Shown one piece after another: positions 3,653-40,280 of a stretch of 64,000 nucleotides of DNA (position 1 is its first letter; each line of letters starts with the position of its first letter). Location of the stretch: the NCBI GenBank assembly GCA_963699155.1, contig OY969414.1, positions 1,163,757 to 1,227,756 on the forward strand, read 5' to 3'. The notes under the pieces are model-generated. The model saw only the letters and a list, made by a program, of their open reading frames with translations, was not told where the DNA came from and ran no database searches. The position numbers were made by a program, and so were the translations under genes. The stretch comes from an uncultured Chlamydiales bacterium (GTDB lineage: Bacteria; Chlamydiota; Chlamydiia; Chlamydiales; JAAKFR01).

Positions 3653-4699
3653 TTAGGCAACAACAGAACCGCACATCGCAGCTCTCACCTCTCTGGAGCC
3701 TTTGTGAGCGGTTTTCCCATGCATCGTGGCGACATTGTCGACAAAGATCAGGTCGCCTGCTTTCCAATCGCGGCCCACTTGATGCTTTTCTAGGATGTTC
3801 AGAATGGTGGAGGCCTCTTCAAGGCTGATGGGAGTGCCATCATCAAATTGGACATCAAACTGACGGCTGCTCTCAGTAGGGTAGAGGATGGTTGTGGCCG
3901 CTAGATATTTCCACCAACCCCCACACAGTTTGGGGCTCAGGATATCAACATAGATCTGGTTACAAAATAGGGTGATACCCTCGCTCTGGATCGTTCCAGG
4001 AATGCCGCTGCGTGAAACAACAAGCCACTTCTCATCCCATCTGTAGATTAAACCCTCTTCTCGAAACTTTTGTTCGACAACTTGTCGATCCTCGCTACCA
4101 AAACGGGCCTTGATCGTTGCGTGAGAGGGATTCAGTGTTTGAATCCATCGAGTATAGGCGCTTCCTTCGGGCAGATAACGGGCAGTATAAGTCAGGGGTG
4201 TGGTGCGCAGCTTTTCCCATAATGCAGGTAAAGCCTGTTTAATCTCTTCTGTGATATTTTTCACATTGGCAACGACCGTCTGCCCCATACCAGCCTGTGG
4301 AGGCGTCGAACAGAAAAAGGAGATGTATTGAGGCATCTGTTTTCGATCTCCGCCTGAGACCTCTTGATGGGGAGGGACCCAGACATCATCTGACTCAGCT
4401 GTCGAATGGTAGACATTATTGCCGACCTCTCTACGTGGCGTATCTCCCTTATAAACATCGGGTGGCTTTCCCAAAGCTGCTGTGAAGGCAGCGTGGAATT
4501 GAGCCTCTACCAGATTAAAGCCGCTAAAGACCACCGCTCCATAGGTTTTAATCGCCTCCGCGATGATTTTCTTATGGCTCCCTGCCCACTCAATAAAGTC
4601 GATGGGCTCACGAGGAGTCACCACGAGGGGGCATCCTGTTCTCGTTACAGAAAAACAGTGAAAATGGGTTTCAGGAAAGAGACTAGCTGTTATGGACAT
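3653..4699 (-). CDS. TauD/TfdA-family (SyrP-like) 2OG-Fe(II) dioxygenase
   Basis: YGAVVFSGF, PPHQE, ISFFCSTPP, GQT and WKAGDLIFVDN..TMHGK motifs. Confidence 0.85.
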   Translation of the reverse strand: MSITASLFPETHFHCFSVTRTGCPLVVTPREPIDFIEWAGSHKKIIAEAIKTYGAVVFSGFNLVEAQFHAAFTAALGKPPDVYKGDTPRREVGNNVYHSTAESDDVWVPPHQEVSGGDRKQMPQYISFFCSTPPQAGMGQTVVANVKNITEEIKQALPALWEKLRTTPLTYTARYLPEGSAYTRWIQTLNPSHATIKARFGSEDRQVVEQKFREEGLIYRWDEKWLVVSRSGIPGTIQSEGITLFCNQIYVDILSPKLCGGWWKYLAATTILYPTESSRQFDVQFDDGTPISLEEASTILNILEKHQVGRDWKAGDLIFVDNVATMHGKTAHKGSREVRAAMCGSVVA

Positions 4700-21206: not shown

Positions 21207-21518
21207 ATGGAAGAAGGTGGTCAAATCAAACGATGGACCGCGGCACGTAAGATTGAAGTTGTCTTACGTCTATTAAAAGGAGAGTCCATCGATAAACTAA
21301 GTCGAGAACTCGGTGTAGAGGCTTATTTAATCGAAGAATGGCATTCAAAAGCAATTCAGGGCATGGAAGTGGGATTAAAAATGCGTTCCGAAGACCCTGT
21401 TCAACATGAATTAGACCATGCTAAGAAACGCCTGGGAGAGCTCATGATGGAAAACGAGCTCTTGCAGATAAAGGCCAACAAAGCACCGGGTTTTCGTATG
21501 GGGAGGTCCAAGAAATGA
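21207..21518 (+). CDS. IS3-family OrfA (HTH)
   Basis: RWTAARKIEVVLRLLKGES..LSRELGV; stop overlaps the orfB start. Confidence 0.85.
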   Translation: MEEGGQIKRWTAARKIEVVLRLLKGESIDKLSRELGVEAYLIEEWHSKAIQGMEVGLKMRSEDPVQHELDHAKKRLGELMMENELLQIKANKAPGFRMGRSKK

Positions 21519-22552
21519 GCGAGAAGATCTCTCCTTCAACCCATCTTAAATATGGTGTAGAATTAGTTTGTACAGTGTGGAAGTTTCCTCGCTCATCTTT
21601 CTATCATAATAGAAAGCGGCCATATAAACCTAAGGGGCTTCGAGGAAAAAAGCCGACCCTCTCAGACAATGATCTATTGGAGGCCATCAAAAAAGACATA
21701 TCCGAAAGCCACTTTCAAGGAGAAGGACATCGAAAAATACATGCTCGATTAAAACGCTTCAAGAAACTAAATATTGGGCGGAATCGAGTTTTGAAGCTAA
21801 TGAGAGAGCATAAAATGCTCTCTCCGTATCGCGTTGAACAGGGAAAAGAACGCCTACATGATGGACGCATTACAACAGACCGCCCCAATGAAATGTGGGG
21901 TACAGATGCCGCTAAGATTTTCACCCTCGAAGATGGGTGGGTGTGGTTTTTCGGAGTAATTGAACATTGGAATGCTGAATGTCTAGGGTGGCATGTCACA
22001 AAGAAAGGAAGTCGATTTGCTGCAATAGAAGCCTTAAATAAGGCTGTTGAGGTTGTTTTTAGCAAAACATCCTCTAATGTGGCTCGTGGGGTCAGTTTAC
22101 GAGTAGATCATGGCTCTTAATTTATGTCAGAAGGCTTTATTAACCAAACACGGTACTGGGGCATAAGTATAAGCAAGGGCTTTGTGAAGGAGCCTGAAAC
22201 CAACGGGGTGATAGAAAGGTTTCACAGAACATTTAAGGAGCAGATTGTACACGGTAGGCATTATCATGGCCTAGAAGACTTTAGGAAGGCTGTAGCAGAG
22301 TTCATTAAGTCGTACAATGAACACTGGCTTTTAGAAAAGCTAGATTATCACTCCCCTCTGGAAGCCAGGGAGTTATATTCCAAAGAACACCCTTCTGAAC
22401 AAATTTTATCGGCGTTAGCTGAGGTTGGAGAGGGAGCACGGCTACTTTGTTCTGGCAAGGATATGATAGCAAAAACTGAGAATTTTAGAATAATTTTAAA
22501 GCGACGGAAGAAATTTACGCAAATTTGTGTCCAAAGAAATGGTGGCGATACA
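21515..22552 (+). pseudogene. IS3-family OrfB DDE transposase with in-frame TAA at 22118-22120
   Basis: PNEMWGTD, VDHGS*F, PETNGVIERFHRTFKEQ. Confidence 0.85.
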
Positions 22553-22599
22553 CACTCAGCATCGTGGGTACATTTCATGATGCGAATACGATTAAAATT

Positions 22600-23010
22600 T
22601 GCAGCCTTTAAGACTTTGCTTATGAAGGCAGCTTTTCCTAGATTATACCCTGTGAAAGGGGAATTATTTTTTCATATGAAGATTTTTCTTGCAAAAGTTT
22701 ACCTTTTAGCTCTGCATACTCATTAAGTATTCAGGGTGGTTTGCAAATAGTCTCTGAAAAGAAGGTTGAGTTCAATTTCAGGGTGCCCCTTCTTGTATAT
22801 GTGAAGGTTAACATCTATGCCCTCAGAACGATTAAAATAAAATCGCATAGGAATATTGTACTTTCCCTTATATGTGAATCCCAAACTTTCGAGGTAGAAT
22901 TGCCATTTAGGATTGCCAACAACCCTTATCATGTCAATGACTCGTTTAGCAGAAAGACCCGGCCGGAGTGAGCCGATGTGATGAATGGCCCAACAATTCG
23001 ATCCTAGAGC
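22600..23010 (-). pseudogene. GrpB/UPF0157-like remnant
   Basis: IHHIGS..SAK.VID, VNLHIY and LLFRDYL fragments in broken frames. Confidence 0.6.
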
Positions 23011-24228: not shown

Positions 24229-25068
24229 TTATTCGCAAGAGTCAGTTTTATCTTTGTAATAGGGGAGGGCGATAAGAGCATTTGATAGTGCCCAGCCTTG
24301 TCCTCTTATCCACATTTCATCGTCGACTTGTAGAGCAGAGCGGAAGATAGCTCGTGTGTAGGAGGGTAAAAGGTTCCATGCGATGATGAGATCAGAAGCG
24401 GGGTCACCGATACCCAGAATGCCAAAATCAATCACCGCACTAAGATGACCATTCACTTGGAGAAGGTTGCCTGGCGAGAGATCGCCATGTATCCAGACAG
24501 GAGGCTTTGACCACTCAGGCGCCCTTAAAGCGTTTTCCCAGATCTGTGTAACTAACGGTACATCAACCATTCCCTCTAATTTTTCTAAAGCCTGCTGAGT
24601 TTCAAGGTCTTTTTCTATTAAAGGCACACCTCGATTGGAACGGGGACCATTGGATAGATTTATGCTGCGCATAGCCCGAATAAAAACAGCCAGTTCATGT
24701 GCCAGTGCTATTGGATTTTGAGGAGGAGCCCAACACGATTGTTTCCCTGCGAGCCAACAATAGATCGACCATGGGTAAGGATATTCGTTTGTAGGTTGAC
24801 CTTTAGCAAGTGGGATAGGAATTGAAGTAGGTAGAAAAGGGGCTATTTTGGGCAGCCATAAGTATTCCTTATCCACATTTTCTACAGCCCAACCAATCTT
24901 TGGCAATCGTATGACCATCTCGTTGCCAAGCTTGTAAAGTGCATGGTCTGTACCTGCAGAAAGGACGGGTTTAAGCTCTAAGCTCGCCCATTCGGGAAAT
25001 TGTTCTCTGATGAGGTTTTGTATAAGGGGCTGATCGATGTGGAATTCATCAGCGTGCATTTTAGACAT
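24229..25068 (-). CDS. Aminoglycoside phosphotransferase (APH) family protein, 3' end probably frameshifted
   Basis: SAGTDHALYKLG, WIHGDLSPGNLL, VIDFG. Confidence 0.85.
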   Translation of the reverse strand: MSKMHADEFHIDQPLIQNLIREQFPEWASLELKPVLSAGTDHALYKLGNEMVIRLPKIGWAVENVDKEYLWLPKIAPFLPTSIPIPLAKGQPTNEYPYPWSIYCWLAGKQSCWAPPQNPIALAHELAVFIRAMRSINLSNGPRSNRGVPLIEKDLETQQALEKLEGMVDVPLVTQIWENALRAPEWSKPPVWIHGDLSPGNLLQVNGHLSAVIDFGILGIGDPASDLIIAWNLLPSYTRAIFRSALQVDDEMWIRGQGWALSNALIALPYYKDKTDSCE

Positions 25069-25440: not shown

Positions 25441-28400
25441 GCTTAACGAGTCCGCGACAGCTGCTCTGCCAGCATCTCTAATGGTAGAACTTTGGAGGTC
25501 AGAAGCAACCCATCTCCAGCCGTTTAGTGATTCGTATTGGGCTTGTTCTTCAACAGAGAGGTGTCCTTGTTTATATTTTTGACGAATATTGGACACGTAA
25601 TACCCTATTTTTTTTTTCATTCTCCACATGCTTGATAGGAGGGCATGCATGACCTTCCCGTTCAAGATAGCATAGCAGAGCCAAATAGTTTTCATCTTTT
25701 TGGTCATCAAAAATACCAGGGGCAAGTTTTTCAAGTCGTTCCATGAATGGTTTTGAGTCTGGGTATTTTTGGGAGAACTTTTTTTATTTTTGATTTCAAT
25801 TCTCGTATTTCTTTAGGGAGTATATCTGGTTGATAACCACTCTTTTCGAAGTAAGAGATCAGTTCCTGCATGCCTTGAAAGTAAGGAAGCTGCTCAAAAT
25901 AATTCCATGCCCATTTATCGCCTAGAGAGTGAAGGTAATCAATTATAGGCTCTGCAAGCTTATCTTTGCGTTCTCTCAGATCCGATACTTTTTGACCAAG
26001 AGGGTATCCATCAGCACAAATGTATCCTTGCGAGATATGAGCATTCCCATGTTCCTGTAGGTAAGCATCTATGCGAGGCTGAACTTCTTGTATGAAGATT
26101 CGTATGTTATGTTTTTCAAAAAAGTATGGATCTAGCGTTAGTATCCTCGTTTGAATTGGCTCTTTGAGCTTCCGTTTCCGCATGCTCCTACACCATCCAG
26201 CAAGATCGAATCCATCTTCCAGGTGCTCCTCAGGTACAATGATTTGATTCGTACGATTCTTAAATTTTTCATATAGTTTTAACCCTCTCTCTAAATACTC
26301 ATCATCGCTTTCCATATCATCTTGCAGCTCTTCTAAAAAACGAGGTATTTTCGAAATTCCTTCAAGAATATTGGGAGCAACCTCTGGGGAGTTTTTTTGA
26401 TCTTATTGCGCAGATTATCAAGACGAATCGAGTATTTCACACCTTTATGACAGATTTCTTCCCTATGGCCAGTTTTTGGTATAGTTTTTTCCTTCGCGAG
26501 CTGCAAATTGGGACATAGCAAGAGTGGCAGCCTCAGCCCATTCCTGGGTTGGGGATAGTTTAAAGTTGTTATCTAAGAGGAGTCGTTGTTGCTCAGGGGA
26601 AAGCTTTTTCCATTCAGCGCCTTTTCTTATGTGTTGCATCCAGGCGCCAAGGCTATAGCCATCTTCAATGTGTGTATTTGGGATGATAGGAGTGCCAAGT
26701 TTCTCCAAACAGAAATAAACATTCCAATCCAATCATCAATGGATAGGGTTTTATTCCGTTGAAACTTCTTGGCAATAAAGCCTGGTAATTTTTGCAGTCG
26801 TTCTTGTTTATCTGGGGATAGGGTATGAAAATTTTTCTTTTGATCGCTATACCAAGAGCCCAATTTCACTGCTTTGCCATTTACCTCAACTTCGTAATCT
26901 TTATGTACTCTGCAATTGCCACGCTCCTCAGTATACTTTACCAGAAGTCCATAGTTGAATTCCCATCGTGCATTTTTCTCATCATCACAAGAACGAATGG
27001 CTTCACGCAATTGTGCAAATGTTTCAATGCCACAAGCGTCGCTAGTGTATCTGAGCAAACCTTCAAGAGGGTTTGTGATCTTTACAATCTCAAAATCAAT
27101 ATCTTCAACGTTAATCCCACGCATCCTAAAAGTTCTGCGGAGTAACATACTCCAAACTTTGTGTCCGATCTCTTCGGCATGAGCAGCCACTTCATATTTT
27201 TGTAAAATTTCAGGGAGAATATTCTGATATTGTTCGTATAAAACGGCAATTCCTTCTCCCTTCTCACGATTAATTTCGCTAATATTTGTAAGGTGTTTAA
27301 CGACATCATGTAAGATTAACAGCCGCGTAGATTCGGGCAATCCATTCATTTGTTTGTGAGACTCTTCGCCTATCTCCTGATCAATATTCTTTTTAGTTTT
27401 TACAATAGGAGATGGAATGGCCACAGGGTTAAGAACATCTTCGAGTATGAGAGAAGCATAAATGGCTTTGAGATAATTGTTTAAGTTTTCCTGAAAACAA
27501 TCATTTTGCTGGTCCAAAGAAAAAGGCAATAACTGTATGACCTCGACATGCTGTTTATCCTTTGCATCACGAAATAGCCTGCCAATCATTTGCACCACGT
27601 CTACAAGCGAAGCGCGTGCGCCTACAATTATACTGCGATCTGCCCAAATCCAATTAGCTCCTTCTTTGAACATGCCTAATGCAATAATGAGATCAAGTGC
27701 ATCACGCTCTAGTTTAAGCGCTTCACTATTGAGAAGTTCCTTTTTTTTAGCACGCTGATCTTCATCAACAAGATCAAGCATTTTGAAGTCATTATGCGAA
27801 TTTTTTAGATGGCTTAGACCGTCGCTTGTATCAATCAATTCTCCGCCATGAATCTTTTGATATTCTGAAAAAATTCTTTTAACTTCTCGATATTTATCGC
27901 CTGTAGATAGTCGTGATTTAGGATGAGGAACATAAATAATGTCTTTACCTTTTCGGTGTTTGACAAGACATCCAATAGCATTTATGTAATCGTCACCGCA
28001 AAGCAAAAAGTCAAAGCTAAATGATTCAAGATACTGCATGGACTGAAGATATTCATCATAGGGTAAATTAAACCTTTTGAATTGAGATTCCATAGATGGG
28101 GTAAGCAAGCTGCAACGGTCACCTCGGAAAAAAGAAGCTGTTGTGAGACCAAGTTGTACATGGTGATGCGTTGAATTTAAAAGATTTGTTACCAAGTCAC
28201 CCATGCCATTACTAATAACTACATCTTCAATGTCTTCCATAGCTACATTCTTAACGTGATGAGCCTCATCGACCCAAAGCAATAAATTGTTTAAGAGGTG
28301 AAGTTGATTTTCTGCCTTGAGTCTTTTATATGCTTTTACAAGGGTTGCATGGGTGCAAAGGAGCACTCTATCATTAAGATTTTGGTATGAGTTTGAAAGC

Positions 28401-28783
28401 CAATCAATTAAATATTGGATTGTGCTTTTTTTAGTATCTTTATTGCAGAGATTATGTGTGACCCTCCAATGCAAAAATTCTCCATCAGGCATTTGAAATT
28501 TGGCATCGACAAAACCAGGAGCAATAATTGTTTGTGGTACCGAAATAATCGTTCGCAAAGAGTCTGCTCTTCGCATTTTATATGCAGACAATAGGCACAT
28601 CATCCAGGATTTTCCGCTGCCCATGGGGGCATTGAGTATCATAAAAGGCTTATCTCTTAGCATGGCAAAGGCTCTTGTTTGCCAACCGCGCATCGAAAAA
28701 TAACCTTCAATGCTTGAAGGTAAGCAAGGGTTACGTTCCCATGTAAAATCAAATGCTTTTTTTCTTGTAATTTCGTCTGTCAT
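25429..28783 (-). pseudogene. SF2 DEAD/DEAH helicase with multiple helicase-associated (HA) repeats; C-terminal part frameshifted
   Basis: APMGSGKS, VDEAHH, TAS, QMIGR in 26627-28783; repeated DG.xLG.W units continue in fragments down to ~25.5 kb. Confidence 0.75.
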
Positions 28784-28875: not shown

Positions 28876-29112
28876 TCATTCGGGCATCAAATCTTTTGGA
28901 GAACATTCCAAAGCACTTGCCAAGGCAACGATATTCTCAAGCGCAATATTCCGTTCTCCTCTTTCAACCGATCCTACATAAGTGGGGTGCAAGTTGGCTT
29001 TTTCAGCCAATTCTTCTTGAGTTATACCCATTTCGAATCGTCGCATCCTTACTTTTAACCCAAATGCACGGCGAATAGGGGTTTTCTTTCTATTGTGTGG
29101 CTCTTTACCCAT
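28876..29112 (-). CDS. XRE-family HTH regulator (C-protein-like)
   Basis: FGLKVR..R..ITQEELAEKANLHPTYVGSVERGERNI. Confidence 0.9.
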   Translation of the reverse strand: MGKEPHNRKKTPIRRAFGLKVRMRRFEMGITQEELAEKANLHPTYVGSVERGERNIALENIVALASALECSPKDLMPE

Positions 29113-29255: not shown

Positions 29256-29621
29256 ATGAAAGAAGACATTGTTGAAAAATTGTTAGAGTACTTGCAAAAC
29301 ACGCAAGATTTTGTATTGGAACAGGTTCCTCAAGTTATTCAGCAGGCATTAAGATATGAGAAAATCTCAGCCTATATGGTGGCGATTATCATGTCTGCGT
29401 TGCTTTTAGCAGCCGCTATAATTTTCTGTTATTTTTGGAAGAACCCTTCTTTGGATGTCCATGGCTGTCGTAAAATTTCCTCAGTCATGGGTATGTACAT
29501 ACCAGGAGCTATATCTGCTATTGTTTTTATTCAACTTTGCGTTTCAATAGATAGATTGATAGAAATTTATATAGCTCCAAAATACTTTTTGATTCAGTTA
29601 TTTATGAATATGAAAAATTGA
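29256..29621 (+). CDS. Two-TM hypothetical membrane protein
   Basis: GGAGG RBS; two hydrophobic segments; 18 nt upstream of the RAMP-like gene start. Confidence 0.7.
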   Translation: MKEDIVEKLLEYLQNTQDFVLEQVPQVIQQALRYEKISAYMVAIIMSALLLAAAIIFCYFWKNPSLDVHGCRKISSVMGMYIPGAISAIVFIQLCVSIDRLIEIYIAPKYFLIQLFMNMKN

Positions 29622-29639
29622 TATTTGGGACAATCGATT

Positions 29640-30248
29640 ATGTTATTAAAAGCAAAAATTTCAATCTCTGGGAAACGTCCCATCTTATTCAACCGATTTT
29701 CAGTTGATTCTATCTCTCTTGAGAAGCAAGAACGCACAGGAGTAGCAGGGAACAATCCAGAAGAGTGGAAACGGACTGTACTCAAGACAAATGAAAATCA
29801 GCTTTATGTAGAGTCTACCTATATTTTCGGTTGCATTAGGGATGGTGGCAAGCACCTCAAATTAGGAAGGGGCACTTTGCAAGCAAAAATTGCATCGACA
29901 CTTGTTGTGCTCGATGAGATCATTCTTTTGGATAGATTTCTTCCCAGGGAGGAGGATCTTACACAGGACAAAAATGCTCTCGTCTACCTGGATGTCAGGG
30001 GAGTTAAAAATCCCTCAAGTAAAGGCCGGAATATACGCTACCGTGTTGCCTGCTCCCCTGGATGGAAAGCCGTTTTTCAAATTGAATGGGAAAATACGGT
30101 CATTTCAAGAAACGAAATGCATTCTTCGTTAGATAGCGCTGGATCATTTGTTGGGTTGGGAGATGGGCGAGCTATTGGTTTTGGCCGTTTTGAGGTGGAA
30201 CAGTTTGATATTTTAGAAGAAGCACCCAAGCAGAAAAAGAAGTCATAA
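29640..30248 (+). CDS. Stand-alone Cas7/RAMP-like RNA-binding protein (202 aa)
   Basis: N-terminal strand AKISISGKRPIL; LYVESTYIFGCIR (like the PxxxxKGxxR helix of RAMPs); thumb-like DVRGVKNPSSKGRNIRYR; C-terminal G-rich loop GLGDGRAIGFGRFEV. Confidence 0.7.
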   Translation: MLLKAKISISGKRPILFNRFSVDSISLEKQERTGVAGNNPEEWKRTVLKTNENQLYVESTYIFGCIRDGGKHLKLGRGTLQAKIASTLVVLDEIILLDRFLPREEDLTQDKNALVYLDVRGVKNPSSKGRNIRYRVACSPGWKAVFQIEWENTVISRNEMHSSLDSAGSFVGLGDGRAIGFGRFEVEQFDILEEAPKQKKKS

Positions 30249-30251
30249 TGC

Positions 30252-30317
30252 GGTGGGGCATGGCATGGCTAGGCTTGTCAAGGCTTGGTGGTGGCGTGGT
30301 GGGGCAAGGCAAGGTTT
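30252..30317 (+). ncRNA. GGY-NN pentamer array, candidate guide RNA
   Basis: GGT-gg GGC-at GGC-at GGC-ta GGC-tt GTC-aa GGC-tt GGT-ggt GGC-gt GGT-gg GGC-aa GGC-aa GGT-tt; 13 units, intergenic, then T-rich. Confidence 0.75.
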
Positions 30318-30323
30318 TATTTT

Positions 30324-30614
30324 ATGCCCAAAAAGAGACAACCAAATGCAATTTGGCGTTTAAAGCGCGTCACAATTTTAAAGAGGGATGGGTATCGTTG
30401 TACTCATTGTGATGTTGTTGTGACTATTGAGACAGCGCACATTGATCATATTCAGTCAGGAAAGTTGGGGAGTAATCATAAGTCTAATTTGAGAACACTT
30501 TGTCGTCGATGCCATGTATTGCGGGCTGATCATCGGCATCGCGGAATGACAGCAAAGGCTCTTTGAGATGGAGTTATACCTCCAAATTGGCGTGAGCTTG
30601 TCTGGGAAGATTAA
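30324..30614 (+). CDS. HNH endonuclease with in-frame TGA at 30564-30566 near the C-terminus
   Basis: RDGYRCTHC..HIDHI..GSN..NLRTLCRRCH; frame continues DGVIPPNWRELVWED* after the TGA. Confidence 0.85.
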
Positions 30615-34061: not shown

Positions 34062-36468
34062 TTAAGAGCCGATGCGGACAATGAAATCTACACCTTCCCA
34101 ATGCTTCGCTTCCGGCCAGTGAAAAGTGAATTTCACTTCATTTCCAGTAGAAAGTTGCGTCGTCATGAGATCAGCGCTATGAATCCCTAATCCTACATCA
34201 TGTGTTTTTACATCATGAGTTGTTTGCCAATTATCAGCGCTCCAATGAATGATTGCAGGCGTCAATGTTTCGATACGGAGTATTTTGCCGGGATAGATGA
34301 AGCGAATCTTTTGATTAAACCTCCATATCATCCTTGGAGATACCGTTTTATCAATCAGATAACGTTTCACGGTTTGAGGAGGCATATCGAAGACTTTCCC
34401 GTCATGTAATGAACGTCGCAATTTGAGGTATTCTGCATGGGCCCAGACAAGAGGCATAGCCGAACCGGAAGGTTTACCCAAATACAATCCCTTTTCTGGT
34501 ATATCCTGCTTATCCCAGACTTGTTCTGAAATCAGCCCATTTTCTCCTGCGAAAGATTCCATGGCGTTAAGCAGCTTCTTTGCATTTTCGACCTGACCTG
34601 CTGCCAATTCGTAATGGGCTCGTTCACCTGTCAACAAGGGCCAACCACGGCCTATTCCTGTCCCATCAAATGGCGAGCCATCTTCATGTTCCCCATAGCC
34701 ATCATCATTGTAGCGATGCCATGTAGGCCCGCAAGGGGTCTCTATTTTGAGCAATGCATCTATCACTTTTACTGTATCGCGCATGCGTGGGTCATCCGCA
34801 GCGCGCAAACCAAAGCGTACTAGAGCAAGTGCATCGGGGCTTATCAGATGTTTAGTAAGCATAGTATCTTCAGCAGCCGAAACGTTTGGGATATGTACAT
34901 CCTTTTGTAAACGGGATACGCCTCCTGCTTTTTGCGTCGGAACAATCCGTACATAAAACCCTTGGACGTTAAATTTACGGCACCAGTCTGTTCCAGAGAC
35001 GTACATCCACTGATCGATGGATGTATTCCATACATCTGCGACCTCACGCAAGTAATTTGCAATCGATGTTTCCTGATTCAAATCGGCAAGATCAGCTGCT
35101 GCCAAGAGTGCAGCAATTTCTGCTCCAACAGTGAATTGTGAATATCCTGGATCTTCTTCCCAACGATCTTCTGGGCTAACAGGTCCATTGCGGACTAAAT
35201 AGCCAGCCGCATTTCGTACCATCGGCCAAAACTGAGCTGCGCTTTCCCTCGTCAATGCCCTTTCACGCAAAGCAAAATCAACCAAAAGAATGGGCAGGGC
35301 AGTTTCATCCATTTGGATTCCAGTCCAATTGGGCGAGCCATCCACCCACATATTCTGGGGCCAATACCCTTCAGCATGTTGAGTTGACTGCAAGAAAGAA
35401 AGCATGCGACGGACATCCTCATGCGCACCGGCAGCTAGCAAGGCGCCTGCCGTTTCCACCATGTCGCGGGACCAAATAAGGTGGTAACCACCCAGGTCCT
35501 TATCTCCCTTACTAAATCCCCAAGGTATGGATAGGCTAGCTATCAGGCCCCCCGGAGGTGTTTGGGATTCATGAGTGCGTATCACAGAGAGACTCTTTCG
35601 AGAAAGGGTGTTAGGAAGGGGATCTATCTCTTTCAACGCAGTATGCCCATTTATCCAATCCTGCCACCCGGCAAGGTAGGCTTGCTTTGCCGGATCAAAA
35701 CCAGCCTTAAGGCTGGCGATGGCATTGTGAGCGGCTTCTTCAGGATTCTTTGCCAAACCCAAGAGCCAATAGGAAATTACCACCCGATTTTGCAAGATCG
35801 ATTTGAGCAGTGAGAGACACATTGCCCCTTTCAGCGCGCGAATATTCACAAGTCATTTGTTTGTGATCTCTTAAGTCATGCCATCCATCTGAGGGACCTA
35901 CGTAGCTAACAGATCGTTTTAGCCAGGGAACGGAACAGGCAAGAGCTAATGCACAGTCTTTTCTCTGAGCAAATAATAGCTGAGTATTCTCAAATTCAGC
36001 TAGCCAAGCGGTATTATCCTGACCTTGATTCTCCAGATGTGGTGAAAGTACGACGTAGATTTTATAATCTGGTAATTGCCCTTGAAGTGGGATAAATTGC
36101 GTCTGTTGTAACACAGTATCTCGCTGAGAGTCTGTCACAATCTGTTTTTCAATGCGGTACCGATGTTCATGGCAGGTATTGACTAAACTAAATGCTGGTA
36201 CGCCATCGGCCATCCAGTGCACTTGTGAATCAGTATTCCGTTTCTCTTCTGAAAAAAAATGGCTCCCATCTGTGGCGATTAATCCCATATCGCGAGTACA
36301 AGCTTGGTCAATACGGGGATAATAGATTTCATTGAAGATTCCATGGCTAAGTGTAAACCAAATATGACTCTTGTCGCTAAGGGCCGTTCCAACTCCTGTT
36401 TTAGCGCTAGAAGTCCAACGAGCAGGGACACCGGGACTGCCGGGGGCGAAATTGTTTGGTGTTGGCAT
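34062..36468 (-). pseudogene. GH15 glucoamylase/glucodextranase, frameshift near 35.77 kb
   Basis: WTSSAKTGVG, GGYHLIWSRD, DRWEE, SAMPLVWAHAEY. Confidence 0.85.
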
Positions 36469-36667
36469 GCTATATCCTTTTTGCATTTCCAATCTTTTCT
36501 ACATTTCTCTATTTAAAAAATAAATATCAAAATCATGTAGATACAGTTTGTCTCCACGTACCAGTTGGCTAAAATTAAAATAATAGTTACAGTCGTGTTA
36601 TCTTCGGTGAGTTGTTGTAAACATCTCATTCTTAATCAAGTTACTGATGTAATAGGCGTGGTCGAAC

Positions 36668-37870
36668 ATGAAACCAACTAGTCCTAGCATCCTGACAATC
36701 AATGGCGGTTCATCGAGCATTAAATTCGCGCTATTCGAAGCGAATAGCCCCCTGAATCGCATTCTGGGGGGCAGCATGGAGCAGATTGGACTGCCGGAAC
36801 CACCTTCGTGTGAAAGGGATCGAGCCAGGCGGATCACATTTCGCGACCTACTCGCTCAGAACCATACTGCAGCGGTAGATATCTTGATGGATTGGATTGA
36901 AGAGAGGTTCGGGAAAGATGCATTGACCGCAGTGGGACATCGCATGGTACATGGTGGAAAAATATATAAGCCGCAGCGAATTACTGAGGAAATGGTTGAA
37001 GAATTGCGTCAACTTCAGTCCTTTCGATCCTGAGCATCTGCCTGAAGAGATCCTTTTGATCGAGGCATTTCATCGTCGATTTCCTGACTTCCGCAAGTAG
37101 CGTGTTTTGACACAGCTTTTCATCATGATCTGCCACGGGTAGCTAAGTTGTTACCGATTCCACGCCGTTATGAAGCGCAGGGAGTGAGGCGGTATGGGTT
37201 TCACGGGTTATCCTATGAGTTTTTAATGGGAGAACTGGCCCGCTTGGCTGGAACAGAGGCAGCACAAGGCCGGGTCATCCTCGCCCATCTCGGCAATGGT
37301 GCGAGCCTAGCTGCGGTGCGACGGTGGCAAATCTATGGATACCAGCATGAGTTTCACTCCGACAGCCGGGGTGCCGATGAGTACACGTTCAGGAGATCTT
37401 GATCCGGACTAGTTTGGTATTTGGCACGCACGGAGGGATTCGATGCAAAACAATTCAATGAGATGGTTAATTTTCAGTCGGGACTGCTTGGTGTATCGGA
37501 GATTAGTTCCGATATGCGTGACTTGCTCGATCATGAAACTCAGGATATACGGGCAGCTGAAGCGGTCGCATTGTTTTGTTATCAGGTTAAGAAATGGATC
37601 GGTGCATTTGCAGCGGCGTTAGGTGGACTGGATACACTGGTATTTGCTGGTGGTATCGGGGAGAATGCACCTACGATTCGTTCCCGGATTTGCGAAGGTT
37701 TAGGATTTCTTGGAATCGAATTCGAAGAAAAACAAAATGCAGGCAAATGAAGGAGTTATTTCTACGGCAGCCGGCCAGAGTAACTGTCCGGGTCATACAT
37801 ACAGATGAAGAATGGATGATAGCACATACGGTCTGTCGCGTCCTTGGACTTAGAAGTCTTAACAAAGTGA
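36668..37870 (+). pseudogene. ackA: Acetate kinase, multiple frameshifts
   Basis: [43 protein letters not shown]. Confidence 0.9.
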
Positions 37871-37926
37871 AAAACATGATAATGAAGCATGCTGTAGAAA
37901 CTAGAAGTTGAAAAACTGGTAAGCCA

Positions 37927-40280
37927 TTGTCGCCCGATCTGCTGCAAAAAATGAATGCCTATTGGCGGGCTGCGAATTACCTTTCGGTCGGCCAGATTTA
38001 TCTCTATGACAATCCACTGCTGAAGGAGCCACTAAAATTATCTCATGTGAAGCCGCTAGTGGTTGGACACTGGGGCACAACACCGGGCCAGAATTTCATC
38101 TATGTGCATTTGAACCGGGTCATCAAGAAATATGACTTGAATATGTTCTACATCGCCGGTCCTGGCCACGGCGGCCCGGCATTAGTGGCGAAATACTTAT
38201 CTCGAAGGCACCTATAGTGAGATTTATCCGAACATCAGCCAGGATGAAGCGGGCTTAAAAAAACTGTTCACGCAATTTTCGTTTCCCGGTGGGATTTCCA
38301 GCCATGTTGCGCCGACAACACCAGGGTCGATTCACGAAGGGGGTGAGCTAGGGTATTCACTCAGCCATGCCTTTGGTGCTGCATTCGACAATCCCGATCT
38401 GATCGTCGCTTGTGTGATTGGCGATGGTGAAGCAGAAACTGGCCCTTTGGCGACCGCATGGCAATCCAATAAATTTCTCAATCCAATTACCGATGGAGCT
38501 GTGCTGCCGATCCTACACCTAAATGGTTACAAGATCAGCAATCCGACTATCTTGGCTCGCATCGAGCATGAGGAATTGGAACAATTTTTCCGAGGCTGCG
38601 GCTGGACGCCTTATTTTGTGGAAGGTGATGAACCGGAAGAGATGCATCAACTCATGGCCGGTACTTTGGAAAAAGTCATCGAGGAGATTCGGCAGATCCA
38701 AAGCAACGCACGCAACAAGAATGACACTACTCGGCCACGCTGGCCAATGATCGTCCTGAGATCACCAAAGGGTTGGACTGGGCCAAAAGTTAGTTGATGG
38801 TCTGCAAATTGAAGGGACATTCCGAGCACATCAAGTGCCGCTTCTGGTAGATGCCGAGCATCCCGATCATGTTCAAGCAGCTTGAAAGCTGGATGAAAAG
38901 CTACAAGGCAGAGGAACTATTCGATGAGAATGGGCAGGCTTATACCGGAATTAGCTGAGCTTGCGCCTAAGGGTGACCGGCGGATGGGCGCCAATCCTCA
39001 TGCCAATGGTGGTATTTTGCTGCGCGATCTGCGTAATGCCGGACTTTCACGATCACGCGGTGAATGTGCCGTCTCCTGGCGCTGTCATGGCTCAAGACAC
39101 GCTCGTGCTGGGCAAGTTCCTTCGTGATGTGGCCAAGCTGAATCAGGATCAACGTAATTTTCGTATTTTCGGTCCCGATGAGACACTCTCGAATCTTTTG
39201 GGTGCAGTCTTTGAAGTCACTAATCGTCAATGGGACGCTCGGGAAGTAAAAAATGATGAATTTCTCGCACCCGCAGGACAAGTGCTGGATTCGATGCTCA
39301 GCGAGCACCAGTGCGAGGGATGGCTAGAAGGATATTTGTTAACCGGGCGGCATGGGCTGTTTAACAGTTATGAAGCCTTCATTCGTATCGTCGATTCGAT
39401 GTTCAGCCAGCATGCCAAATGGCTGAAGGTAACATTGGAATTGCCCTGGCGCCGGAAGATCGCATCGTTGAACTACCTGCTTGCCTCTCACGTCTGGCAG
39501 CAGGATCACAATGGATTCACACACCAAGATCCCGGTTTCATTGACCACGTGATCAATAAAAAGGCCGATATCGTACGCGTTTATCTACCCCCCGATGCCA
39601 ATTGCCTACTCTCGGTCTTTGATCACTGCCTGCGCAGCCGACATTACGTCAATGTGGTGGTAGCCGGCAAACATGCTCTCCCTCAATGGTTGACTATGGA
39701 CGCTGCAATTGTCCATTGCACGGAAGGAATTGGCATCTGGCAATGGGCTAGCAATGACCAGAATGCTGAGCCAGACGTGGTGATGGGCTGCTGCGGAGAT
39801 ACTCCCACACTGGAGATCTTGGCTGCTGTTTCCATTCTCCGCCAGCATCTACCCGATCTGAAAATCCGGGTGATCAATGTCGTCGATCTGATGAAGTTGC
39901 AGTCTCAGAGCGAGCATCCGCATGGTCTAAGCGACAAGGATTACGATTCTCTATTCACCAAAGATAAGCACATCATCTTCGGCTTTCATGGATACCCATG
40001 GCTGATCCACCGATTGACCTACCGCCGGACCAACCGCAACCTCCATGTTCGTGGCTATAAAGAAGAGGGCACCATCACGACTCCCTTCGATTTGAGAGTG
40101 CAAAACGACCTGGATCGCTTTCATTTAGTGCAAGATGTGGTCGATCGCCTGCCCCATTTAGGTGGTAAGGGGGCTTATTTGAAGCAGATGATGCAAGACA
40201 AGCTCATCGAGCACAAGCACTATGTCGATAAGCACGGCCAGGACATGCCGGAAATTCGGAATTGGAAATGGAAGGGATGA
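37927..40280 (+). pseudogene. xfp: Phosphoketolase, multiple frameshifts
   Basis: [50 protein letters not shown]. Confidence 0.92.

Follow-up and report, generated by a model that had tools for sequence, protein, structure and literature searches.

The locus raises a simple question: what is the role of a short, G-rich tract in which a nearly constant triplet alternates with a variable dinucleotide, and which is placed tightly between two genes of a chlamydial genome? In the window (the whole stretch of 64,000 nucleotides that was analysed) the forward strand from 30252 to 30317 reads GGTGG GGCAT GGCAT GGCTA GGCTT GTCAA GGCTT GGTGGT GGCGT GGTGG GGCAA GGCAA GGTTT. The array is composed of 13 units of the form GGY+NN, of which 12 have kept GGY (unit 6 has GTC) and one, unit 8 (30287-30292), has an extra base and is therefore 6 nt long. 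The dinucleotides spell GG AT AT TA TT AA TT GG(T) GT GG AA AA TT, exactly as in an earlier, sequence-only reading of this DNA. The array fills most of a gap of 75 nt between the gene of a small RAMP protein, vipr, and that of an HNH nuclease; it is on the same strand as both, starts 4 nt past the stop codon of the former and ends 6 nt before the start codon of the latter.

The sequence-only reading had further stressed that the tract is rich in G on one strand and is not the product of simple microsatellite slippage, and both points are supported by the numbers. G makes up 32 of the 66 nt (48%) versus 21% in the surrounding 2 kb. When chains of GGY at 5-nt spacing were scored on both strands of the whole 2,399,326-bp genome, the array reached 10.5 and the runner-up 5.5, and strict runs of at least 4 units were found in the 64-kb window in the array alone. 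TRF picks up just a fragment of the array (30282-30302, with period 11), so the array is not a microsatellite of the slippage type. Its occurrence is far beyond chance.

The key to the probable function of the tract is provided by the VIPR (Viral Interference Programmable Repeat) systems, a minimal form of RNA-guided DNA recognition that has a non-contiguous code, is a possible ancestor of the CRISPR effectors and was described only in 2026. According to the text of the preprint (10.64898/2026.04.26.720920), a VIPR system combines a RAMP protein of ~20 kDa (Vipr) with an accessory gene (vap) and with vrRNAs of 9-16 YNNGG repeats, in which GGY is constant and the NN specify a dsDNA target, with one base skipped between dinucleotides and the skipped base usually at a codon wobble position. 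The same text distinguishes seven types, of which types III-V have predicted nucleases or helicases and types III and V are found in defence islands and match viral sequences. It also describes single-vrRNA systems and arrays that are interspersed with hammerhead ribozymes, reports that self-targets are absent and that type II VIPRs silence their targets without a nuclease, and presents the experimental use of NN as guide by the SUSP1 system (10.64898/2026.04.26.720920). A structure determined by cryo-EM revealed one Vipr protomer per repeat, with GGY sequestered and NN presented (10.64898/2026.04.26.720927), and later preprints have also dealt with VIPR (10.64898/2026.10.21.760802, 10.64898/2026.10.15.759431).

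The window locus is a chlamydial member of the type of system that was described in these 2026 preprints. More specifically, we consider it very probable that the repeat (guide) part of a vrRNA is encoded by the tract, and we have similarly high confidence that the module as a whole consists of the HTH regulator, the RAMP protein Vipr, one vrRNA and the HNH nuclease as Vap (Table 1). Each defining feature that could be examined is present: a Vipr homologue, an array on the same strand, conserved GGY with variable NN, a vap gene and the absence of a self-target. Moreover, the dinucleotide code with one skipped base that the sequence-only reading had arrived at from the letters alone is the rule as published for VIPR (10.64898/2026.04.26.720920, in its text). 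From the likeness to the systems described there we infer that the vrRNA would be expressed at this locus, that it would form a filament with Vipr, and that it would have a natural target and bring about cleavage.

Table 1. Features of the predicted VIPR module in the window (positions are those of the window)
Feature	Position	Strand	Details
XRE-type HTH regulator gene, 78 aa, divergent	28876..29112	-	Pfam HTH_3 E 7.4e-15; PADLOC Control_protein E 2.8e-18
121-aa ORF between regulator and vipr	29256..29621	+	phrog_3054 E 5.1e-9; no Pfam match
vipr, single-domain RAMP protein	29640..30248	+	202 aa from ATG 29640; TTG start 29625 gives 207 aa
Possible degenerate 5' unit AATGC	30247..30251	+	overlaps vipr stop codon; last two bases GC extend capsid-gene match
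Predicted vrRNA guide region, units 1-10	30252..30302	+	NN GG AT AT TA TT AA TT GG GT GG
Probable semi-constant 3' end of array	30303..30323	+	GGCAA GGCAA GGTTT plus U-rich run
vap, HNH endonuclease gene, 80 aa	30324..30566	+	Pfam HNH 28.7 bits, cut-off 21.4
HNH frame continuation past stop	30567..30614	+	still encodes the family's conserved C-terminus DGVIPPNWRELVWED

The identification of the protein rests on both sequence and predicted structure. Vipr matches phrog_4652 and no Pfam family, and its homologues begin at the position of the ATG start codon. A profile of 21 members of the family gave one significant match among solved structures, namely the 'SUSP1 Vipr protein' (PDB 36pp_D, E 1.8e-9), in an alignment that covers query residues 7-190 and chain residues 5-190. 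The C-terminal glycine-rich loop reads GLGDGRAIGFGRF, and the Asp and Arg of this G-loop (D177 and R179 in SUSP1) as well as the thumb Arg (R138), the roles of which are given in the structural preprint (10.64898/2026.04.26.720927, in its text), are kept in the family alignment. In line with this, the top matches listed when the AF2 model (pLDDT 79.6, pTM 0.76) was compared with the PDB by Foldseek were Csm3/Cas7 of type III and type VII complexes and Cas7-11, with a best E of 9e-8 and a TM of about 0.5. In addition, the G-loop region of one Vipr homologue has a weak Cas6 match (E 0.002).

Homologues of Vipr are numerous and widely spread: 826 were found at E<=1e-3, the best 120 of which are 55-99% identical, and they occur in Chlamydiota, Bacillota, Chloroflexota, Acidobacteriota, Cyanobacteria and others. 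The protein encoded in the window is intact and 99% identical to one of them (P0001). Within the Chlamydiota the distribution of vipr is sporadic (9 of 401 genomes), and the gene was found in neither of the two genomes of the same genus that were searched. A tblastn search of Vipr against 50,697 phage records (cultured phages) gave no match. A scan of metagenomes for close relatives of the window locus yielded 31 loci, none with more than 58% identity, which precluded a unit-by-unit comparison of orthologous arrays.

The association between array and genes could be established on a much broader scale from 99 loci that encode a Vipr homologue, where a chain was called at a GGY-period-5 score of at least 5. 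From 600 nt upstream to 1400 nt downstream of vipr, at least one chain was present in 71 of the 99 loci, in many phyla. The chains near vipr numbered 86, every one of them on the same strand as the gene, and the remaining 591 kb of these loci contained 4 chains, both strands taken together. Seven of the 86 lie upstream of vipr, 25 begin no more than 120 nt past the vipr match, which is the class of the window, and 54 start more than 120 nt downstream of it, mostly behind the HNH gene. Among the 58 unique arrays GGY is kept, the NN differ by locus, and all 16 dinucleotides are found at internal positions. One of the Acidobacteriota loci (L018) carries two more GGY/NN chains on the opposite strand (3945-4108), ~2 kb upstream of vipr, which may constitute a second, oppositely oriented set of vrRNAs.

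The partner genes show the same constancy. An HNH gene was identified behind vipr by family searches in loci L007, L014, L035 and L048, and of the 68 loci displayed, most have an ORF with an MPKKR-type start after vipr. A small divergent HTH_3 gene lies just upstream of vipr in 9 of 10 other loci (L004, L014, L016, L030, L031, L035, L042, L048 and L058); the candidate gene at that place in the tenth, L010, gave no HTH_3 match. In the window this regulator resembles the 'control proteins' of defence modules. It is uncertain whether the 121-aa ORF next to it is part of the system, and two of the other loci (L035 and L048) have no ORF of at least 70 aa between the HTH gene and vipr. Beyond the HNH gene the neighbours vary and include genes for an OLD nuclease, a STAND NTPase, a methylase and IS66, as well as a tape-measure gene in L007; the module is thus self-contained and mobile.

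In the Bacillota relatives vipr and the HNH gene abut or overlap and there is no array between them. The arrays of these relatives are bracketed by hammerhead-like elements of the form CGAAAC...CUGAUGAG (L014 6878-7103, L023 2095-2360, L043 6990-7241 and L012 6170-6240). One of these elements (L014 7034-7103) scores 39 bits against the type II hammerhead of Rfam (RF02276, gathering score 37), and the bracketing elements of L023 had no Rfam match at E<=1. In L043 the copies have UUGAUAAG or UUGACAAG as their core, which presumably would replace the C3-G8 pair of the hammerhead by U-A.

What would the array recognize? The mechanism was worked out on the systems of SUSP1 and P. fulva, as described in the text of the 2026 preprints, and is transferred here by homology. 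Each 5-nt unit would be bound by one Vipr protomer, the GGY bases would be flipped out and held by the protein, and the exposed NN dinucleotides would pair with a DNA strand of which every third base is skipped. If the GC upstream of the array is added to units 1-10, the guide would read x-GC-x-GG-x-AT-x-AT-x-TA-x-TT-x-AA-x-TT-x-GG-x-GT-x-GG. Read backwards, this is the template strand of the codons A-P-I-I-Y-N-F-N-P-T-P, which lie close to the 5' end in the major-capsid gene of an uncultivated group of tailed phages, with the skipped bases at wobble positions.

The evidence for this target comes from a search of viral contigs with the 11-unit pattern (the upstream GC plus units 1-10), which has 22 specified bases and bounds that were chosen post hoc. 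The boundary at the GC was picked with the matches already in view; with GC as the eleventh dinucleotide the 23 exact viral matches are all kept. These 23 were obtained at gap 1; gaps of 0, 2 and 3 each gave 0 matches, as did the backward reading of the pattern. All 23 fall on the same site of the gene for a major head protein of 316 aa, which is related to phrog_1357 (E 2.8e-21) and scores 26.6 bits against Pfam Phage_capsid_4, just below the cut-off of 27 bits; one example is found in a record of 40,163 bp that was rated 100% complete. On the opposite strand the sites encode SVPTPNFNYIIPA(E/D)KY. In their alignment the NN columns are invariant and each skipped column has 2-4 different bases, from which it follows that the skipped bases are the codon wobble positions. 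The notion that a 3-nt period would ignore codon wobble, put forward in the sequence-only reading, thus has a counterpart in this capsid gene. The published rule of one skipped base with wobble-phased skips fits in silico, within post hoc pattern bounds and with units 11-13 unmatched.

The significance of the match has to be judged with care, and the chance figures that follow are our own estimates and not the results of a tool. Exact seeds of 8 units gave 74 matches in the viral contigs for units 1-8 and 43 for units 6-13. By our count from the translations, 24 of the 74 belong to one gene family, the capsid family, and there the match extends through units 9 and 10 and back into the GC. With ~35-40 independent families of 8-unit seeds, an extension through units 9-10 would occur by chance with a probability of about 0.1-0.2, and adding the upstream GC and the wobble phase brings this to roughly 0.003-0.01. 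The seeds from units 6-13 were discarded: the best of them reached 22/26, and no coherent family emerged except for two identical contigs. The full 13-unit guide also agrees with the capsid site at 22/26 positions, a level that by our estimate is expected many times by chance in such a collection, so that only the contiguous perfect run counts as evidence. We rather favour the capsid gene as the true target family, on a match that is not statistically secure.

The two ends of the array behave differently with respect to this site. Units 1-10 agree with it at 20/20 NN positions when one nucleotide is skipped between dinucleotides, whereas units 11-13 (AA AA TT) agree at 2/6. Of the 58 unique arrays, 16 have AA and 14 have AT as the NN in front of the last GGY, internal AA being at ~9%, and an ending in GGTTTT or a T-run is common to many of them. 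Given the poor agreement with the capsid site and the AA/AT bias, the last three units are probably not guide, and the last 2-3 units together with the U-run probably form a semi-constant 3' end. The idea that the dinucleotides act as guide, as advanced in the sequence-only reading, is therefore supported for units 1-10 and probably does not extend to units 11-13. A fold of 30235-30380 gave no signal (z -0.62), and nothing resembling the structured 3' tail of the SUSP1 clade was found; the arrays of the Bacillota relatives have a hammerhead ribozyme at their end instead. A scan of the tract for promoters and terminators gave nothing above shuffles, and in Rfam no fitting family was found, the sole overlapping row being a meaningless lncRNA match of 11 bits.

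A second contig, from a public run, is 98.4% identical and spans window positions 29900-30600, where it has 11 substitutions in 701 positions. It has no substitution or indel in the array and shares the extra base in unit 8. Runs X2 and X4 yielded no sequence for this stretch. The suspicion that the extra base at 30290-30292 is a read error can thus be laid aside, as it is not peculiar to the assembly of the window. Provided that the capsid gene is the true target, the register of 3 nt on the target would run unchanged through unit 8, with this unit read as GG.

The gapped-motif search that had been proposed together with the code paid off in the viral contigs, at gap 1, and found no target in the genome itself, in keeping with what a system of this kind would lead one to expect. 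In the own genome of 2.4 Mb the best match at gap 1 was 19/26, equal to that of guides with shuffled unit order (range 19-21), and there was no self-target at any gap size; a match of 21/26 at gap 2 (position 1727447) exceeds the shuffle maximum, which is 20, by one. In 401 Chlamydiota genomes the full 13-unit pattern with at most 3 mismatches gave 2 matches (G400 and G376), the reversed control giving 0. One is located in the gene of a secreted protein and has its skips on codon position 2, and the other straddles a gene start; since they are neither wobble-phased nor in a gene of a mobile element, both are regarded as chance. Another candidate target was kept only as a weaker alternative. 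It is present at L149 and L268, where 24/26 positions agree only if an extra base is skipped at unit 8, in intergenic DNA that is rich in AT and immediately precedes an ORF of 412 aa (~0.1 such matches would be expected by chance, again an estimate); L145 and L156 have similar sequence around the 8-unit seed. When 57 other arrays were scored against the 40-kb phage G402 to see whether they converge on it, no comparable match was found.

Among the 400 Chlamydiota genomes that were scored, 9 contain homologues of the capsid protein, the best with 49% identity (E 7e-95). Full-length homologues are present in the Chlamydiota metagenome-assembled genomes of L257 (G149:C102, 49%) and L258 (G395:C145, 47%). 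At the corresponding site, PTPYFIHKIPA, the chlamydial homologues agree with the pattern at 18/22 and 17/22 positions. This hints at tailed prophages in Chlamydiota, with mis-binning as a possible source of the two homologues.

The accessory gene is less well preserved than vipr and the guide, both of which look intact. The HNH protein of the window also gives a partial NCBIfam match to the HNH region of IscB and matches the ZorE HNH of PADLOC. Its frame ends early at an in-frame TGA (30564-30566), 16 codons short of the usual end of the family, where 7 aligned HNH homologues run on through the C-terminal motif. Of the related contigs, the two that span this codon each have a base other than that of the window at its first position, and the catalytic core lies upstream of the premature stop. 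The presence of an HNH partner suggests that the target would be cut and not merely silenced; in the window genome this nuclease arm may be impaired. Farther genes around the array encode RecT, a YqaJ exonuclease, a repressor and a helicase, which indicates that the island is derived from a phage. Considering the premature stop together with the many split genes in the island, the VIPR system may even be inactive in the window genome.

Could the tract be something other than a guide? As a G-rich repeat that arose by chance or slippage, or as a G-quadruplex-forming spacer without a specific partner, it could draw on the GG every 5 nt, from which two-tetrad quadruplexes might form, and on the short period-11 repeat that TRF finds inside it. 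Such an origin is hardly credible, however, for an array that is unique in its genome (10.5 versus 5.5) and whose units are not identical copies; moreover, a quadruplex alone requires neither a third position that is limited to C or T nor the bias of 86 versus 0 for the gene strand. A cis-acting mRNA element, in which TRAP-like protein-binding triplets would cover the ribosome-binding site of the HNH gene and the NN would be without information, has the position of the tract in its favour: it ends only 6 nt before the HNH start, an AAGG at 30311-30314 inside its 3' end is located 9 nt upstream of this start, its 3'-terminal units are semi-conserved, and the Bacillota vipr and HNH genes that abut or overlap have no array between them. 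The TRAP site of the trp leader of B. subtilis has 11 G/UAG triplets with spacers of 2-3 nt, and the array is like it in form only, i.e. in its constant triplets, its variable spacers of 2 nt and the binding of one protein subunit per unit. It differs in the triplet, which is GGY and not GAG/UAG, in the protein, which would be a helical RAMP filament and not a ring, and in the spacers, which would carry information. A site of the true TRAP type was rejected on the triplets, which are not (G/U)AG, and on the neighbouring ORFs, none of which matches the TRAP family in Pfam. In its general form as well, the explanation by a cis element is very improbable: at other loci 7 of the 86 chains precede vipr and 54 begin over 120 nt past the vipr match, usually after the HNH gene, the arrays of Bacillota are cut out by the flanking hammerhead ribozymes, the capsid match at gap 1 would be unexpected, and the homologous SUSP1 system uses its NN as guide (10.64898/2026.04.26.720920, in its text).

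A different matter is whether the system is still alive. The locus might be VIPR by descent only, a relic that decays in a degraded mobile island, in which case the capsid match would be a fossil or chance. We regard this as unlikely, though it is the island itself that speaks for it, with an HNH frame that stops 16 codons before the usual end, an acetate kinase gene in 2 pieces, phosphoketolase in 3 and glucoamylase in 2, and a split transposase of the IS3 type; the two genomes of the same genus that lack vipr, the loss of GGY in unit 6 and the irregular unit 8 point the same way. Nevertheless, vipr is intact and 99% identical to P0001, not a base of the array has changed in a contig with 11 differences over the surrounding 701 positions, and the stop codon in the HNH gene is preceded by the catalytic core and differs at its first base in both related contigs. 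In addition, type II VIPRs silence their targets without any nuclease, according to the preprint text (10.64898/2026.04.26.720920). The reading of the tract as a vrRNA that is still active as a guide, directed at the major-capsid gene in a lineage of tailed phages that infect environmental Chlamydiota, with a 6-nt unit that causes no register shift and with the last 2-3 units as a constant handle, is one that we put forward tentatively, at somewhat less than even chances.

Should the reading as a live guide be true, the locus would be the first RNA-guided antiviral system described in Chlamydiota, and it would provide indirect evidence that tailed phages prey on members of this phylum. It would also imply two rules that the passages of the preprints considered here do not give: a 6-nt unit would be tolerated without a shift of the 3-nt target register, and the last 2-3 units of the HNH-linked clade would act as a constant 3' handle and not as guide. 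The locus extends the HNH-linked VIPRs to a member of the Chlamydiota, and it offers a concrete and testable pair of guide and target, the latter being a capsid gene from a group of phages whose relatives are found in chlamydial genomes. Furthermore, it displays natural variants of the code (the 6-nt unit, the GTC unit and the semi-constant terminal units) next to a truncated and a full-length HNH in near-identical strains. What is added here to the published description are the membership tests, the positions of the arrays and the processing by hammerheads across the clade, a candidate natural target and the code variants.

The comparison with the known systems shows where the locus is to be placed. 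With the type II system of the Escherichia phage SUSP1 it shares a small single-RRM RAMP protein that is homologous in sequence to the SUSP1 Vipr, and it has the general VIPR traits of YNNGG units (13 here, inside the published range of 9-16), a minimal locus with one accessory gene, and a wobble-phased match with 1-nt skips in the gene of another phage. Unlike SUSP1, the accessory gene encodes an HNH nuclease and not a DNA-binding protein, a single vrRNA lies inside the vipr-vap operon in place of several arrayed ones, no pseudoknot-type 3' tail was detected, and one unit has 6 nt. The host is likewise different, as the Chlamydiota are a phylum without mention in the main text of 10.64898/2026.04.26.720920. 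The resemblance to types III and V is in the HNH partner beside vipr (checked in the window, L007, L014, L035 and L048), in the single array of the window and the hammerhead-flanked arrays of the Bacillota relatives, and in the OLD-type nuclease, STAND NTPase and methylase genes among the neighbours in this clade. Going by the text description in the preprint alone, we would call the window locus 'type III-like', of the nuclease-linked single-vrRNA kind.

The closest solved folds found by Foldseek connect Vipr to the backbone proteins of class 1 CRISPR (Csm3/Cmr4/Cas7). Both form a filament along the guide RNA with a thumb that interrupts the pairing periodically; the period in VIPR is 5 nt of RNA and 3 nt of target versus 6 and 6 in class 1 CRISPR, and the guide information of VIPR is non-contiguous. 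A class 1 CRISPR-Cas system of the type III-like kind was considered for the window and rejected: repeats with a period longer than 17 nt were not detected by TRF in the 64 kb, and the 9 ORFs scanned around the array contained no cas family, the flanks being occupied by HTH, HNH, RecT, YqaJ and helicase genes.

Some further observations concern the island. At its left edge an IS3-type transposase is split over three ORFs (21207-22726), the first of which (21207-21518) is without a Pfam match and is followed by HTH_21 and then rve; the island has a low GC content (38-42% versus 47.5% for the genome). Several metabolic genes are in pieces (window 36668-40280 and 34062-36492), with at least 2 ORFs for acetate kinase, 3 for phosphoketolase (XFP) and 2 for glucoamylase/glucodextranase, as a result of either pseudogenisation or frameshift errors in the assembly. 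Inside the island, a 279-aa ORF of the Pfam APH phosphotransferase family was found on the reverse strand (24229-25068, E 3.5e-29). Finally, a ResIII/DEAD helicase of 718 aa and an ORF of 194 aa (25731-28783, reverse strand), both with 'helicase-associated' (HA) domains, adjoin the VIPR module on the opposite strand, and L048 has an ORF of 712 aa in the same place.
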